This document shows, piece by piece, positions 4,901-50,423 of a stretch of 51,793 nucleotides of DNA. Position 1 is the stretch's first letter; the number at the start of each line of letters is the position of its first letter. The position numbers were made by a program, and so were the translations under genes. The stretch spans positions 1 to 51,793 of the forward strand of contig DASPGR010000323.1 in the NCBI GenBank assembly GCA_035620515.1, in the 5' to 3' direction. Source of the DNA: Burkholderiales bacterium. GTDB lineage: Bacteria; Pseudomonadota; Gammaproteobacteria; Burkholderiales; SG8-41. Under the pieces are notes generated by a model, which was given only the letters and a program-made list of their open reading frames with translations, had not been told where the DNA came from and made no database searches.

Positions 4901-5432
4901 CCGCGGCCGAGTGCGCGGCCCATGCCGCGTAGCGCAGCGCAAGGTCGAGCTTCTCCGCGTGCGTTGTTTCGTCCTTCTGCCATTCGCTCACCTGCCTGGC
5001 AAACGCGAGCTCGGTAAAAGGGCCGCCGAACTCGCGCTCGAGCGCCTGCTCCAGGGCGCTCCCGTCAAACCGCGCCGCGTCAGCTGCCTTGTATTTGTGC
5101 ATGGCCTTTCGCTGCACGAAAAGCCGCTTGACCGCGTAGAGGGGCGCCAGCGCGTGATGTTTCTTGACCAACGCGCCCGCTTCCGCTTCGATCCCGAACA
5201 ATCGCACGAGGAAGCGCTCGACGTGGGGCGCGAGAGCCAGCAGCAAGTCGGACTCTTCTTTGGCCGACAGCGCGTTGAACCCGCTACGCGCTCGCATGAG
5301 CCGGTCACGGAGATCCTTGTCCTCACGCTCGAGCGCCTGGCAGAAGTGCTCGTCGAGCCGCAGCAACCCCTCGCGACGGTAGAGATCCGCGATCGTCAGG
5401 CCAATCTCGGTGAGGGGAATGGCGTGTTCCAT
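1905..5432 (-). CDS. Large fused Fe-S flavoprotein oxidoreductase: unassigned N-terminal domain + GltD/NfnB/SudA-like module + PyrK/NfnA/SudB-like module
   Basis: 1175-aa ORF. Cys clusters at aa 245-256, 285 and 325-332 (CIWCHHQDKDSC, GCPLEE, CNDCMKSC). Dinucleotide folds VLVAGMGPAGAA (aa ~388) and VIVVGGGLTAID (aa ~565). C-terminal RPGQFYRL, VVLVGGGLGNA and a 2Fe-2S-type C-x5-C-x2-C-x17-C (aa 1100-1127). Confidence 0.85.
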   Translation of the reverse strand: MEHAIPLTEIGLTIADLYRREGLLRLDEHFCQALEREDKDLRDRLMRARSGFNALSAKEESDLLLALAPHVERFLVRLFGIEAEAGALVKKHHALAPLYAVKRLFVQRKAMHKYKAADAARFDGSALEQALEREFGGPFTELAFARQVSEWQKDETTHAEKLDLALRYAAWAAHSAAGHERRGKGILFKAPEKLDYQRLVPVVTDDSSGYTVHRLDQRHLRRRAGFKLTDPGTDLAGALDEANYCIWCHHQDKDSCSKGLREKNAPGGGAASFRKSPFGVVLAGCPLEEKISEFQQAKAEGMPIGALAIIAVDNPMVAATGHRICNDCMKSCIYQKQEPVDIPQAETRTLKDVLELPWGFEIYSLLTRWNPLNLRQPYPAPATGKRVLVAGMGPAGAALAHYLMNDGHAVVGIDGLKIEPLPAELSGVDARGARAEFRPVREISELHEELDERVMAGFGGVAEYGITVRWDKNFLKLLRLLLERRDQFSLMGGVRFGGTLSAEDAFALGFDHVALAIGAGRPTVLALPHGLARGVRAASDFLMALQLTGAAKADSLANMQLRLPVIVVGGGLTAIDTATEALAYYPLQVEKFLERYERLAREHGETAARVSWNDDERGIADEFLTHARAIREERSLASVQGRPARVLGLLQSWGGVTIAYRRRLVDSPSYTLNHEEVHRALEEGIRFAEGLIPLAVEVDRDGHARALRVSAGTFTPEGKWAETSQHELPARTILIAAGTQPNTVLAREDPEHFKLQGRYFQACDENGMPSAPEPAISKPSQVRVLLSRRPDGRCMSYFGDVHPSYFGNVVKAIGSAKQGYPAVTRALANIAPSSRETDADFMTRLNGELRATVHQVSRLTPLIVEVVVRAPLAARRFRPGQFYRLQNYETAAARVEDTRLTMEGLALTGAWVDAARGLVSVIVLEMGGSSDLCVLLKPGDPVVLMGPTGSPSEIPSGETVVLVGGGLGNAVLFSIGQAMRRAGNRVLYFAGYKHMEDRYKVAEIEAAADVVVWCCDEEPGFTPDRPQDRSFVGTIVQGMHAYAIGNLGNPAIRLKDADRIMAIGSDRMMAAVARARHNGLKPFLKPHHVALGSINSPMQCMMKEICAQCLQPHIDPATQEVSYVFSCFNQDQPMDRVDWGVLDARLHQNAVQEKLTAEWIDHCLVEARRRNMQRV

Positions 5433-5468
5433 TACAAATAGGGCGCGCGACTGCGCGCTAAATCGATA

Positions 5469-5474
5469 ATTATA
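5469..5474 (-). promoter_or_regulatory. Candidate -10 box (TATAAT on minus strand) upstream of the fused oxidoreductase gene
   Basis: Perfect TATAAT about 35 nt upstream of ATG 5432, inside an AT-rich patch. No convincing -35. A GCGCGC-GACT-GCGCGC palindrome lies between this box and the start codon. Confidence 0.3.
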
Positions 5475-5639
5475 TCAACCGGTTCAAGGCTCTCTCGAAC
5501 CCTGCGGCACCCTGCACGTGCGCGTGGCACCGCCAGATGACCGCGCGCTGCTGCCGCGGACGGGCCGCGCCGCAGCCGTCGGCGCCGGGGTCTATGCAAT
5601 AATGACTGGAACCAAGGAATCCTGGCGGCCGCGAACGAC

Positions 5640-17907: not shown

Positions 17908-20175
17908 TCAGAATACTCCGCCAAACGTAAACTGGAACGGCTGCGTGCGATCCAGATTGTCATCCCGGAAGGGCGCCGCCGCGCTGACTTTCAGCGGACC
18001 GAAAGGCGATACCCACAAAGCCCCCACCCCGATCGAATAGCGAAAGAACGTCGTCTCCCATTTGTCGTCGACCATTCCCGCGTCGACGAACGCGCTCAAC
18101 CGCACCGAGCGGTCCGTCTCGGCTCCGGGAAACGGGAACAGAAACTCGAAATTGCCGAGGAGCTTGATCGAGCCCCCACGCGGATCTCCATTCGAATCCT
18201 TCGGTCCTATGGTATAGGACTTGAAGCCGCGCAGCGACGTCGCGCCCCCGGCATAGAAATTCTTGAAGAACGGCAACGGTTGCCCCGTGTAGCCATCACC
18301 GTATCCGATTTCGCCATTTACCATCAATGTATAGATCCGTGTCAACGGAAAGTAGCGCTGGTAGCGGTACGAGAGCTTATAGTACTCCAGATCTGCAAGC
18401 GGGGTCCCGGCTTCCGCCGTCGCCCTTTGAAGTGTACCGGAGGTCGGATAGATCAGGCTGTCGCGACGATCGCGCTGCCATGATGTGGTGAGGAACAGGT
18501 TTGTCGGGTCGGAGCCGAAGGTCGCGACGTAATCCTTGTATATGAGCGGGCTGTTGTCGAAGAGGGTGATCTCGGTGTCTTCGTATCCGATCCCGTATTG
18601 TATGCTGTCATAATCCGTCAAGGGGACGCCGAAGCGCACCTGGCCGCCCTTGGTCTTCGTGTCGTATTGCCCGAGATTATTGGTCGAGGCGTTCACCTTC
18701 CTGTAGTAGATGTCGAATCCCCGGCTCACCCCATCGATCGTGGAGTACGGGTTCGTGTAGCTAAGAGCGTAGGCCGTGTTGACGTCGCTCGTGTTAAAGG
18801 CGAGGCTCAAGTGCCGCCCGGAACCAAAGATGTTCTCCTGGGCAATGGACGACGACAGCACGAGTCCGTCGTCGCTTCCGAAGCCCGCACCGAACAGCAG
18901 TCGTCCCGTGGGCTTTTCAACGACAGCCACGTTGACGTCCACCTGATCTGTCGTGCCCGGTACAGCGGGGGTTTCAATGTTGACCTCGGTGAAGTAGCCG
19001 AGCTTGTCGATCCGCTGGCGCGACAAAGTGATCTTCTCGGACGAGTACCAGGCGCCTTCAAGCTGGCGCATCTCGCGCCGGATGACCTCGTCGCGCGTGC
19101 GCGTGTTGCCGGAGATATTGACGCGCCGGACGTAGACGCGCCGCCCCGGGTCGATCACGAACGTGAAACCCACCACCTGCTTCTGCTTGTTGATATCCGG
19201 AACCGCATTGACGTTCGCGAAGGCGTACCCGTCATTGCTCAGCCGGTCGCTGATCAACTTGCTCGATTCGGTCAGTGACGCCCGGGAGAAGACATCGCCC
19301 GGCTTGACCTTGATCATTTTCCGGATCTCGGCTTCGGGTATCAGCAGCTCGCCCGCGATCCTGATGTCGCCGACGACGTACTTCTGTCCTTCGGTGATGT
19401 TGATCGTGATGAAAATGTCCTGCTTGTCGGGCGTGATCGAGACTTGCGTCGAATCGATGTTGAACTCCGCGTAACCGCGGTCAAGATAGTAGGTGCGCAG
19501 CGATTCCAGGTCTCCGGCGAGTTTCTGGCGGGAGTACTGGTCATTCTTGGTGTACCAGGTCATGAGCCCCGGCGTTTTGAGCACGAACTGCCCGAGAAGA
19601 TCCTTCTCGGGAAACGCCTTCGCCCCGATGATCTTGATCTGGCGGATCTTCGCGATCTGGCCTTCATCGATATTGAAATTGATGGACACGCGGTTGCGTT
19701 CGAGGGGCGTGATGGTCGTGTTGACGGTGACGGCGTAGTAACCCTGGCTCAGGTACAACCGCTTCAGTTCCTGCTCGGCCCGGTCGAGCAGGCCGCGGTC
19801 AAAAATACGGCCTTCGGCGATGCCGATCTGGCGCATGCCGGCGTTGAGCTGATCCTTGGTGAGCTCGCGTGCCCCCACGAAGTCGATCTGCGCGATCGAG
19901 GGGCGCTCGCGTACCGAGACGACGAGGATGCTGCCGTCCCGCTCGATGGTGACGTCCTGAAAGAAGCCCGTCGCGAACAACGTCCGAATGGCCTCGGCCG
20001 CCTTCTCCTCCGTCATCGTGTCGCCCACCTTGACGGGGAGATAGCCGAAGACCGTGCCCGCTTCCGTTCGTTGAATGCCCTCGACCCGGATGTCCTTGAT
20101 GACGAAAGGCTCGAGGGCGGCTGCGGTGGCTGCGTGGAGGGCGGTGAGCAGCACCGCAACGCGGAACCAACGCAT
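17908..20175 (-). CDS. bamA: Outer membrane protein assembly factor BamA
   Basis: Track ORF 17908..20202, trimmed to ATG 20175. Has the signal peptide MRWFRVAVLLTALHAATAAA, POTRA motif IKDIRVEGIQRTEAGTVFGYLP and C-terminal FQFTFGGVF. The 9 extra track codons (MPIYEIGSN) read into the repeat element. Confidence 0.96.
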   Translation of the reverse strand: MRWFRVAVLLTALHAATAAALEPFVIKDIRVEGIQRTEAGTVFGYLPVKVGDTMTEEKAAEAIRTLFATGFFQDVTIERDGSILVVSVRERPSIAQIDFVGARELTKDQLNAGMRQIGIAEGRIFDRGLLDRAEQELKRLYLSQGYYAVTVNTTITPLERNRVSINFNIDEGQIAKIRQIKIIGAKAFPEKDLLGQFVLKTPGLMTWYTKNDQYSRQKLAGDLESLRTYYLDRGYAEFNIDSTQVSITPDKQDIFITINITEGQKYVVGDIRIAGELLIPEAEIRKMIKVKPGDVFSRASLTESSKLISDRLSNDGYAFANVNAVPDINKQKQVVGFTFVIDPGRRVYVRRVNISGNTRTRDEVIRREMRQLEGAWYSSEKITLSRQRIDKLGYFTEVNIETPAVPGTTDQVDVNVAVVEKPTGRLLFGAGFGSDDGLVLSSSIAQENIFGSGRHLSLAFNTSDVNTAYALSYTNPYSTIDGVSRGFDIYYRKVNASTNNLGQYDTKTKGGQVRFGVPLTDYDSIQYGIGYEDTEITLFDNSPLIYKDYVATFGSDPTNLFLTTSWQRDRRDSLIYPTSGTLQRATAEAGTPLADLEYYKLSYRYQRYFPLTRIYTLMVNGEIGYGDGYTGQPLPFFKNFYAGGATSLRGFKSYTIGPKDSNGDPRGGSIKLLGNFEFLFPFPGAETDRSVRLSAFVDAGMVDDKWETTFFRYSIGVGALWVSPFGPLKVSAAAPFRDDNLDRTQPFQFTFGGVF

Positions 20176-20177
20176 GT

Positions 20178-20200
20178 TAGAACCTATTTCATATATAGGC
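20178..20200. repeat. Left terminal inverted repeat TAGAACCTATTTCATATATAGGC
   Basis: Exact reverse complement of 20425..20447. Confidence 0.9.
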
Positions 20201-20424
20201 ACGTGTGCGACGGAGGCGATGTGGGATGCAGTTCAAGGAGGAGGGCCCGAAGGAATATGTCGATATTTCGAGGGCCCCCGACGAAGAAATGCGCCCAGAT
20301 CGCCCCGTCCCTGCGGGTTGCGGCCAGGACGGTCGCCTGCGTCGTTGCCCTCCTCGACCATATCGACATATGGCCTTCGTCGGGCGCCTTGCATCCGCTC
20401 CGTCCTGGCCGCAACGCATCACGC

Positions 20425-20447
20425 GCCTATATATGAAATAGGTTCTA
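20425..20447. repeat. Right terminal inverted repeat GCCTATATATGAAATAGGTTCTA
   Basis: Exact reverse complement of 20178..20200. Its last 3 nt form the rseP stop codon (TAG on the minus strand). Confidence 0.9.
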
Positions 20448-21821
20448 GCCGCCTATCAGACGGTGTATGTCGTTATAGAGAGCAAAGGCCATCAAGACAA
20501 ACAGAAGCGCAATTCCCACGTGCTGCCCGATCTCCATCGCCCGGTCAGACACTGGCGCGCCCTTGATAATCTCGACCGTATAATACATTAAATGCCCGCC
20601 GTCCAATAACGGGATCGGCAGCAGGTTCAGTACGCCGAGACTGATGCTGATCAAGGCGAGAAAAAGCAGGTACGATGCGAGGCCGCTTTGCGCCGACTGC
20701 CCGGCGTAATCGGCAATCGTGATCGGGCCGGACAGATTCTTCAGCGAGACCTCTCCGACGATCATCTTTCCCAGCATTTGCAGGCTGAACCAGGACGTGT
20801 CCCAGGTCTTGCGCATGGCCTTCTGTGCGGCCGTGAGCGGGCCGTAACGAACCTCGGTCATCAAATCAGCTATCGCGTCGCGATCGATCCGGGGCGCCGC
20901 ACCGATTCGCCCCACCTTGCGTTCCCCTTCCGTGATCGTGGCCGGCGTGATGGAAATCGGTGGTATCGCAATTCCATCGCGTCGGAGTTCCACTGTGAGC
21001 GCTACGCCCGGGCTGCCGCGCACCGTTGTAACGATCTGCCGCCAGCTCTCGATGCGCTGACCGTTGATCGCCGTGATTACGTCGCCCGTCCTGAGCCCTG
21101 CGCTTTCGGCTGCGCCACCTCGAACGACCTCCCCGATGACGGGCTCGAGAGGCGGCTGATAGCGCGCGAGTCCGAGACCGGTGAGGAAGTCGCGGTCGAG
21201 ATCGGCCGGCGTCAGGCGCGACATATCGAGCCGGAGCAGGCGAATATCGCCTTTCGCCGTGCGCACGTCGATCCTGACCGGCGGCCCCCTGCGCTCGACC
21301 GCGTGCTGCAGGAGAACCCAGCGCGCCTCCTGCCACGTGGGTACCGCTTCATCGCCGATCGTGAGCAGCGTGTCTCCCGCAGAGAATCCGGCGCTATGCG
21401 CCGCGGTCCCGGGCGGCGGAGGTCCAATGACCGGCTTGATCCCCGGCACCCCGCTCACAAACAGGTACCAGTAAAGCGCGATGGCCAGGAGAAAGTTCGC
21501 CGCGGGGCCCGCGATGACAATCGCGAAGCGACGCCATACCGACTTGCGGTTGAATGCCCGGGGCAGATCCTGCACGGGAACAGCCCCTTCCCGCTCATCG
21601 AGCATCTTCACGTAGCCGCCGAGCGGAAATGCAGCAATGACCCACTCGGTCGCGTCGCGCCCGAGCCTGCGCGACCACAATGCGCGACCAAAGCCGACCG
21701 AGAAACGAAGGACTTTCACGCCGCAGGCGCGCGCGACAAGGTAGTGCCCGAATTCATGCACTACGATGAGACAGCCCAGCGCGACCACGAACGCCAGAAT
21801 GGTGGTGATGAGGTCCATCAT
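20445..21821 (-). CDS. rseP: RIP zinc metalloprotease RseP
   Basis: Track ORF 20445..22136, trimmed to MMDLITTILAFVVALGCLIVVHEFGHYL (458 aa). Has the HEFGH motif, PDZ region and a C-terminal TM segment. The longer track ORF overlaps dxr. Confidence 0.95.
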   Translation of the reverse strand: MMDLITTILAFVVALGCLIVVHEFGHYLVARACGVKVLRFSVGFGRALWSRRLGRDATEWVIAAFPLGGYVKMLDEREGAVPVQDLPRAFNRKSVWRRFAIVIAGPAANFLLAIALYWYLFVSGVPGIKPVIGPPPPGTAAHSAGFSAGDTLLTIGDEAVPTWQEARWVLLQHAVERRGPPVRIDVRTAKGDIRLLRLDMSRLTPADLDRDFLTGLGLARYQPPLEPVIGEVVRGGAAESAGLRTGDVITAINGQRIESWRQIVTTVRGSPGVALTVELRRDGIAIPPISITPATITEGERKVGRIGAAPRIDRDAIADLMTEVRYGPLTAAQKAMRKTWDTSWFSLQMLGKMIVGEVSLKNLSGPITIADYAGQSAQSGLASYLLFLALISISLGVLNLLPIPLLDGGHLMYYTVEIIKGAPVSDRAMEIGQHVGIALLFVLMAFALYNDIHRLIGG

Positions 21822-50067: not shown

Positions 50068-50423
50068 TCGCAACAATTCCTTCCCTGCGCGGACTGCTGC
50101 CGCGCTCGATGACAGGATGGAACGAGGGTGGCGAGCCTTACCCCCGGCACTTGCAGAGAATAGCTGTGGCTGCTTCCTTCCGGACCTGACCAGGTTCACT
50201 ACCGTGCAATGCGGGGAGGCCCGCCGAAATCTGCGATGGAATGCATTATGCACCGGCGTCGGCCGGAGCGCCACTGCGTGACACCTGCCCATGGCTTTAC
50301 AAGTGCCTGGTTTAGTGCTTCCATTTACTCCGCATCAACAATCCCGGAACGCGGTGTGACGTGACGGCTTGTGCGCCGGGTTCAATCCCAATGACGATAC
50401 GGCCAACCTGAGCGGAGGGATGC

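Follow-up and report, generated by a model that had tools for sequence, protein, structure and literature searches.

The stretch of DNA analysed here (the window, 51,793 nucleotides) carries rseP and bamA on its minus strand, in a gene order that matches the canonical cluster rpsB-tsf-pyrH-frr-uppS-cdsA-dxr-rseP-bamA-skp-lpxD-...-lpxA. The rseP coding sequence (20445-21821, minus strand) encodes a RIP zinc metalloprotease of 458 aa that scored 369 bits against TIGR00054 (cutoff 148), and bamA (17908-20175, minus strand; ATG at 20175-20173) encodes a protein of 755 aa that scored 893 bits against TIGR03303 (cutoff 297). The untranslated spacer between them (20176-20444, 269 nt) was found to be filled, as the preliminary description of this DNA had reported, by an element of 266 bp (20180-20445, not assigned to a strand), including both of its terminal inverted repeats. 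The 'A' end (20180-20205, plus strand) reads GAACCTATTTCATATATAGGCACGTG, and the rseP-facing 'B' end (20420-20445, minus strand) has the same sequence with a single mismatch at position 22, the outermost 21 of the 26 nt being perfectly matched. On the plus strand, 20178-20447 reads TA-GAACCTATTTCATATATAGGC...GCCTATATATGAAATAGGTTC-TA, and the outer ends together with the target duplication are TA + GAACCTATTTCA... and likewise TA + GAACCTATTT... The bamA-proximal copy of the duplicated TA (20178-20179) reads ...GGTTC TA AC ATG on the minus strand, with the bamA ATG lying 2 nt past it and 4 nt past the terminal-repeat stem, and the rseP-proximal copy (20446-20447) forms bases 1 and 2 of the rseP stop codon (TAG, 20445-20447, minus strand). 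The stop codon is regenerated because the terminal G of the element turns this TA into TAG, and the length and C-terminus of RseP are unaltered by the insertion (...HRLIGG* in the window, in agreement with ...HRLISG* in relatives).

Sequence searches within the window agreed with the features that had been described from the letters. The five complementary pairs listed there (20178-20200/20425-20447, 20224-20230/20390-20396, 20255-20266/20360-20371, 20268-20273/20352-20357 and 20317-20332/20400-20415) are all exact reverse complements by string check, the 21-nt repeat is indeed bounded by TA at 20178-20179 and 20446-20447, the termini are AT-rich relative to their surroundings (GC 0.51-0.59 at the element ends vs 0.62-0.72 in the flanks), and no transposase-sized open reading frame is present in the 266 bp. 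An inverted-repeat search returned the terminal repeat of the element as the strongest inverted repeat of the entire 51.8-kb window, extensible to 28 nt at 96% (20178-20205/20420-20447). The 21-mer occurs at two sites only in the window with up to 3 mismatches allowed, and none of 100 shuffles matched. Each 21-nt terminal repeat (20180-20200, 20425-20445) also holds a 5-bp mini-palindrome, CCTAT-N7-ATAGG, which may serve as a binding site for a dimeric protein or form a small hairpin. A coding role for the element was rejected, as its longest open frames shift frame between copies and are not conserved. The mechanically called bamA frame (17908-20202, minus strand) starts 9 codons early at a GTG within the terminal repeat (VPIYEIGSN-MRWF...); relatives conserve the ATG at 20175, and mis-annotation of the bamA start by gene callers is possible. 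Elsewhere in the window, the only Rfam match at gathering score was a bacterial small SRP RNA (RF00169, 79.8 bits; 50127-50225, minus strand), and no tRNA genes were found in the window.

The insertion is not an assembly artefact, because L080, which was assembled independently from the same population and is 99.97% identical over 7,377 nt, carries the same arrangement. When the rseP-bamA junctions on the contigs of the closest RseP relatives were compared, eight relatives, the two closest among them, were found to have empty sites in which the stop codon is followed by 3-4 nt and the bamA ATG. L081 (92% amino acid identity) reads GGC GGC TGA ATAC ATG, L082 (90%) reads AGC GGC TAA ATAC ATG, and L084, L085, L086-88 and L089-91 (77-83%) have TGA + 3-4 nt + ATG. 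One relative, L083 (89%), is occupied in the same orientation as in the window and reads AGC GGC TA(266 bp)TA AATAC ATG, which is the L082 junction plus the element and one TA, i.e. 266 + 2 bp. This pair therefore proves a 2-bp TA duplication within a TAA stop codon and regeneration of the stop as TAG, and it bears out the earlier proposal of an insertion at the TA of a TAA stop that was thereby rebuilt. The arithmetic of that proposal, by which subtraction of the element and one TA from the window leaves GGC GGC TAA C ATG CGT, is correct. Its expectation for relatives held in part, in that they do have an intact rseP stop beside the bamA ATG, but the exact empty site TAACATG was absent from the junctions of the relatives, which have 3-4 nt from stop to ATG. 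In a comparison of window 20176-20179 with L083:2144-2150, only AC separates the duplicated TA from the bamA ATG in the window where L083 has AATAC, which suggests that 3 nt before the bamA ATG were lost in the lineage of the window.

These empty sites also bear on whether the spacer might instead be native to the rseP-bamA operon, a conserved structured leader or attenuator RNA with no insertion having taken place. The very stable fold of the element and its presence at the same place in two lineages (the window and L083) would suit such an RNA. The same sequence is, on the other side, found at more than 100 unrelated loci, it has no Rfam match, and the eight empty relatives, including the two closest, have just 3-4 nt between the genes; conservation of the same 270 bp here across distant relatives, named in the preliminary description as an observation that would count against an insertion, was tested for and is not the case. 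Together, the empty sites and the dispersal of the copies refute a native structured spacer, and the chance that this reading is correct is negligible. In one further RseP relative, P0004 (JGI 3300056388, 87% identity), the contig of 2390 nt ends within 213 nt of the rseP stop and has no called bamA fragment there, a hint that the site is occupied in a third lineage or that the assembly broke in the repeat.

The window and L083 could owe their elements to one insertion or to two. A single ancestral insertion that was later precisely lost in the sister lineages L081 and L082 would account for the use of the same TA in the same orientation, and for the two minority character states, no more than these, that the window and L083 copies have in common, both of which are polymorphic in the family. 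It fits poorly with the divergence of the host sequences: the two MITE copies are 96.2% identical, whereas four-fold degenerate sites of the same pair are only 68% (rseP) and 72% (bamA) identical. In rseP the four closest lineages are separated by similar distances (85-88% nt identity), the occupied L083 is more similar to L081 and L082, both empty, than to the window, and two precise excisions would be needed. Nor is there a recent recombination tract, because the flanks adjoining the element are only 92-93% identical between the window and L083. The alternative of an old insertion would call for concerted evolution or strong constraint in addition to two precise losses, and we regard it as unlikely. 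The simplest reading of these comparisons, and probably the correct one, is that the element was inserted twice, independently, at this TA and both times in one orientation.

Copies of the element are widely dispersed, as expected from the earlier suggestion that multiple copies should be sought. Nine betaproteobacterial/Burkholderiales MAGs together hold 79 stretches with the exact 21-mer repeat, of which a lake MAG contributes about 36 and a second MAG about 25, and the repeat also occurs, among the matches listed, in at least 120 metagenome contigs. Full-length copies share 83-98.5% identity with the one in the window, which itself is 97.7% identical to the family consensus, and the sizes have their mode at 260-269 bp (79 copies). 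The hosts are uncultured Betaproteobacteria of Burkholderiales type, and the family, which is abundant in environmental Burkholderiales, appears to be undescribed so far. The element is non-autonomous and multi-copy and has every generic feature of a prokaryotic MITE (PMC10969869): a length of 266 bp (below 500 bp) with no transposase ORF, terminal inverted repeats, which are invariant in 28 aligned copies, dispersed copies at the genomic and metagenomic stretches given above with eight relatives empty at the present site, and flanking direct repeats that decay with age.

Size variants were also observed. Larger forms of about 297, 335-341, 410 and 482 bp carry additional GC-rich modules, and these extra palindromic modules sit near the centre (L016:4813-5297, L032:679-1162, L040:453-933 and L065:5897-6378; further longer variants in L012, L078:5227-5567, L041, L056, L068 and L141). 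The 482-bp form is present in at least 4 copies within one MAG, 90-97% alike, and therefore the enlarged variant has itself spread. Derivatives of 39-69 bp retain the terminal repeats only; across the range 23-69 bp they consist of both repeats alone or of one repeat + GGTTC, with TA flanks kept (L035:2541-2579, L027:6050-6103, L006:6410-6455, L023:5617-5643, L165:806-830), as might be left when a cut-and-paste element undergoes internal deletion or abortive gap repair. Three half-elements (L044:5187-5327, L047:1826-1969, L069:1760-1903) all break at the palindrome centre, at element position ~141-144 after ...CCCTGCGGGTTGC, and continue into unrelated DNA, a pattern compatible with breakage directed to the centre of a long palindrome. 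In the long-read MAG CAWDIV01, L056:3469-8000 and L068:1-4549 share 4.5 kb at 94% identity, including a 299-bp MITE variant, and this tract is either a segmental duplication or the product of two strains binned together. Many of the repeat matches lie at contig ends, in keeping with a repeat that interrupts assemblies, and for annotation it is relevant that the family often causes contig breaks and spurious ORFs of 76-78 aa in these MAGs.

After removal of duplicates, 71 complete copies were available for analysis of the target. TA was present at both ends in 40, at one end in 27 and at neither end in 4. Young copies (consensus identity of 95.5% or more) had TA on both sides in 20 of 21 cases, in keeping with the expectation in the preliminary description that copies be TA-flanked, compared with 4 of 15 older copies; decay of the direct repeats of MITEs with age is known (PMC10969869). 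Targets rebuilt from the 40 copies with TA at both ends were CTAG (13), TTAG (7), CTAA (6) and TTAA (3), YTAR targets making up 29 of the 40, and the preference was the same on both flanks and hence symmetric. The base outside the left TA varies (C 24, T 11, A 5, G 4), so the duplication is of 2 bp and not of 3 or 4. The element thus inserts at TA within YTAR targets, with CTAG preferred, and the TA is duplicated.

Stop codons were found to be frequent landing sites. With an ORF of at least 100 codons and a coding GC3 signature required, in about 21 of the 71 complete copies the duplicated TA forms bases 1 and 2 of a stop codon, whereas by a crude baseline estimate from the same loci stop codons account for 6% of the TA sites that are tolerated (binomial p = 1.5e-9) and for 17% of YTAR sites (p = 0.007). 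Orientation among the stop-codon insertions was unbiased (8 vs 6), and either end yields TAG for an inward-reading gene because the first base of the element is G and its last is C; in several of these copies a co-directional gene begins 19-56 nt past the element. The insertion in the window had been called unusual, but it is less so than it seemed: the terminal G invariably completes TA to TAG, about 30% of the copies lie in stops, and the rseP-bamA junction is the tightest case of a common family outcome. As TA is rare outside genes at ~65% GC, stop codons supply much of it, and in GC-rich genomes with scarce TA they are a favoured safe harbour.

An IS630/Tc1-type transposase with matching terminal repeats, which had been proposed as the partner to look for, was not found. 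Across 211 loci there was no pair of repeats 550-4000 bp apart, at up to 5 mismatches, enclosing an ORF that would mark an autonomous partner. No transposase lay beside the solo repeats in L006, L023, L027, L139, L146, L196, L198, L047 and L069, where ordinary genes were found, and an all-against-all megablast of the first 79 loci returned no other repeated IS. The IS630/Tc1 motif YSPxLNPIE was absent by regular-expression search from ~1 Mb of six-frame translations (stretches of up to ~15 kb around repeat matches), and no related ends were found in PLSDB plasmids (distant mode) or in viral contigs. In L044, one of the half-elements abuts and truncates an IS200/IS605-type Y1 tnpA (ORF 5242-5634, minus strand).

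We lean towards an enzyme of the IS630/Tc1-mariner type, an assignment drawn entirely from the TA duplication and the symmetric CTAG-like target. A MITE mobilised by such an enzyme is expected to show a 2-bp TA duplication, as seen here both in the L082/L083 pair and in the family counts, and IS630 makes 2-bp duplications at CTAG (PMC2577343, Table 1), matching the palindromic target preference of the family, in which CTAG is the commonest target. The main rival is an IS5-family source (for instance of the IS427 or ISL2 subgroups, or a PIF/Harbinger-like relative) from which the MITE derived or by which it was mobilised. YTAR is the classic IS5 target and also the target consensus here, the terminal repeat begins with GA, and the absence of an IS630-type motif near the copies would be in keeping with such a source. 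An IS5-derived MITE would be expected to duplicate 3-4 bp (YTAR/TNA), whereas here TA alone is duplicated and not the 4-bp YTAR: the bases outside the TA differ between the flanks in most copies, the left flank base is variable, the L082/L083 difference is exactly 266 + 2 bp, and a 2-bp target-site duplication at CTAG is a documented IS630 signature (PMC2577343). We therefore consider an IS5-type source improbable.

Much less probable still is a REPIN/REP-like hairpin moved as single-stranded DNA by a Y1 transposase (RAYT or IS200/IS605-type), with the TA belonging either to the element or to its recognition site. The CCTAT-N7-ATAGG palindrome in each terminal repeat and the hairpin nature of the entire element recall such systems, and one truncated copy adjoins the IS200/IS605-type tnpA of L044; that tnpA is itself truncated by the half-element and is thus a victim and not a partner. 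A REPIN would show no target duplication and a strand-specific target, whereas one TA is present in the empty site and two in the occupied site, and the palindromic, symmetric target is as expected for a DDE enzyme acting as a dimer and unlike that of a strand-specific Y1. A length of 266 bp with perfect 21-nt ends is also atypical for REPINs. A Y1/REPIN mechanism is thus disfavoured by the TA duplication and the symmetric target.

The transcript of the element was predicted to fold with -172.7 kcal/mol (z = -12). In the consensus fold of 28 copies, a terminal-repeat stem of 28-30 bp closes two hairpins of ~100 nt, giving a Y shape with a three-way junction. Hairpin 1 (20317-20415, minus strand; helices 2-4) has the perfect 16-bp repeat 20317-20332/20400-20415 as its base and shows a compensatory pair at alignment columns 51:110, and hairpin 2 (20209-20309, minus strand; helices 6-9) shows such pairs at columns 172:204, 171:205, 162:214, 151:226 and 147:230. 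In the consensus Y structure 98.7% of cells were paired and 7 pairs had compensatory changes, a number reached by 0 of 500 shuffles, with slid controls giving at most 2. These changes may reflect selection, or templated correction of quasi-palindromes. The single long hairpin implied by the preliminary description was set aside, as it folds at about -143 kcal/mol compared with -162 for the Y fold, and it is the Y fold that has the compensatory changes.

Opening of the bamA ribosome-binding region (-18 to +12) was computed to require 31-34 kcal/mol when the element is present, compared with 13-16 in the empty relatives, and by this model the bamA ribosome-binding site should be buried by the folded element. 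The same opening was computed to cost 8-10 kcal/mol when the rseP stop region was held single-stranded, as a terminating ribosome would hold it, and because the stop and start codons are on opposite strands at the foot of a single stem, bamA could become accessible through translation of rseP. RNase III cuts Correia-containing transcripts at the terminal repeats (PMC10969869, PMC2229807), and by analogy cleavage of the perfect stem could provide an alternative route to bamA translation. No Rfam match for the element was found, permissive E-values included.

Retention of the element as a promoter or terminator that uncouples bamA transcription from rseP was also considered. Correia elements can create promoters at their ends (PMC2649163), and the terminal repeat here has a TATATA stretch; a scan of the element, on the other hand, found no sigma-70-like promoter and no intrinsic terminator inside it, and the stop-codon insertions show no orientation bias. 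Such a role is very unlikely. Because the element is without promoter or terminator, bamA would still be transcribed from upstream.

Taken together, we consider it highly probable (roughly 85%) that a 266-bp MITE entered the rseP stop codon at its TA, with the stop rebuilt and bamA left intact. The ancestral rseP stop that received it was a TAA a few nt from the bamA ATG, and a TA-specific DDE transposase acting in trans, most likely of IS630/Tc1-mariner type, would have cut and pasted the element. The left TA with the G of the element became TAG, and the right TA with the old flank kept the bamA start, neither RseP nor BamA being altered. The selfish insertion would have been tolerated and the two genes would remain co-transcribed because the element carries no promoter or terminator. 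In the mRNA, the terminal stem and the two hairpins would, going by the computed energies, hide the bamA ribosome-binding site, and bamA would be translated once a ribosome terminating at the rseP stop melts the stem base or RNase III cuts the stem.

In a further, less probable reading, the MITE would be 'operon-compatible' by virtue of its ends, since TA|G...C|TA remakes TAG in TAA and TAG stops, and in this model the terminating ribosome would melt the mask and coupling would survive a 268-nt insertion. If true, this would explain why ~30% of the copies lie in stop codons, why two lineages received an insertion independently at the same rseP-bamA TA, and why there are compensatory changes in the internal hairpins, and coupling through the stem would amount to a simple structural rule for mobile hairpins tolerated inside operons. 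The L082 and L083 junctions, with the window, provide a clean before/after pair for a TA-duplicating bacterial MITE, and the locus shows that a transposon can sit between the essential, translationally coupled envelope genes rseP and bamA with neither protein altered.

The class of element and its behaviour are already well known. What goes beyond the textbook is the unusually complete chain of evidence, the recurrent insertion at one dinucleotide, and the juxtaposition of stop and start by a stem. The RUP elements of Streptococcus pneumoniae resemble the present family in their 2-bp TA duplication, IS630 having a preference for TA within CTAG (PMC2577343), and in their short terminal repeats, lack of coding capacity and many intergenic copies, and they have been linked to IS630-Spn1 through repeat similarity and TA targets (PMC2229807). 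RUP is 107 bp in length compared with 266 bp here, the hosts here are GC-rich Betaproteobacteria, and a partner IS with matching ends was not found for the present family in the 211 loci, PLSDB or the viral contigs. The window element is unrelated to any plasmid-borne IS in PLSDB. Plant Stowaway MITEs, mobilised by Tc1/mariner elements, also duplicate TA; they are eukaryotic and the relation is limited to mechanism class. With the autonomous elements by which they are cross-mobilised, Stowaway MITEs have just the terminal repeats in common.

Correia elements (CREE, NEMIS) of Neisseria, which also belongs to the Betaproteobacteria, are ~105-155 bp long and have a different terminal-repeat sequence. 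The 266-bp element of uncultured Burkholderiales-type hosts, with its differing repeats, was accordingly not assigned to them. They carry IHF sites and can create promoters, whereas no promoter-like site was found here, and in place of a simple stem-loop the structure predicted for the present family has a three-way junction and a Y shape. They share with the present family the TA duplication, terminal repeats of ~26 nt, frequent co-transcription with neighbouring genes and a hairpin RNA, which in Correia is cut by RNase III (PMC2229807, PMC10969869, PMC2649163). RUP/IS630-Spn1 likewise combines TA duplication and terminal repeats with co-transcription and a hairpin RNA. Chunjie of Geobacter uraniireducens (Chen et al. 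2008, cited in PMC10969869) differs in host, sequence and target, but it too has size variants and partial copies, and it is likewise a recently active MITE found inside an operon whose structure it has left intact.
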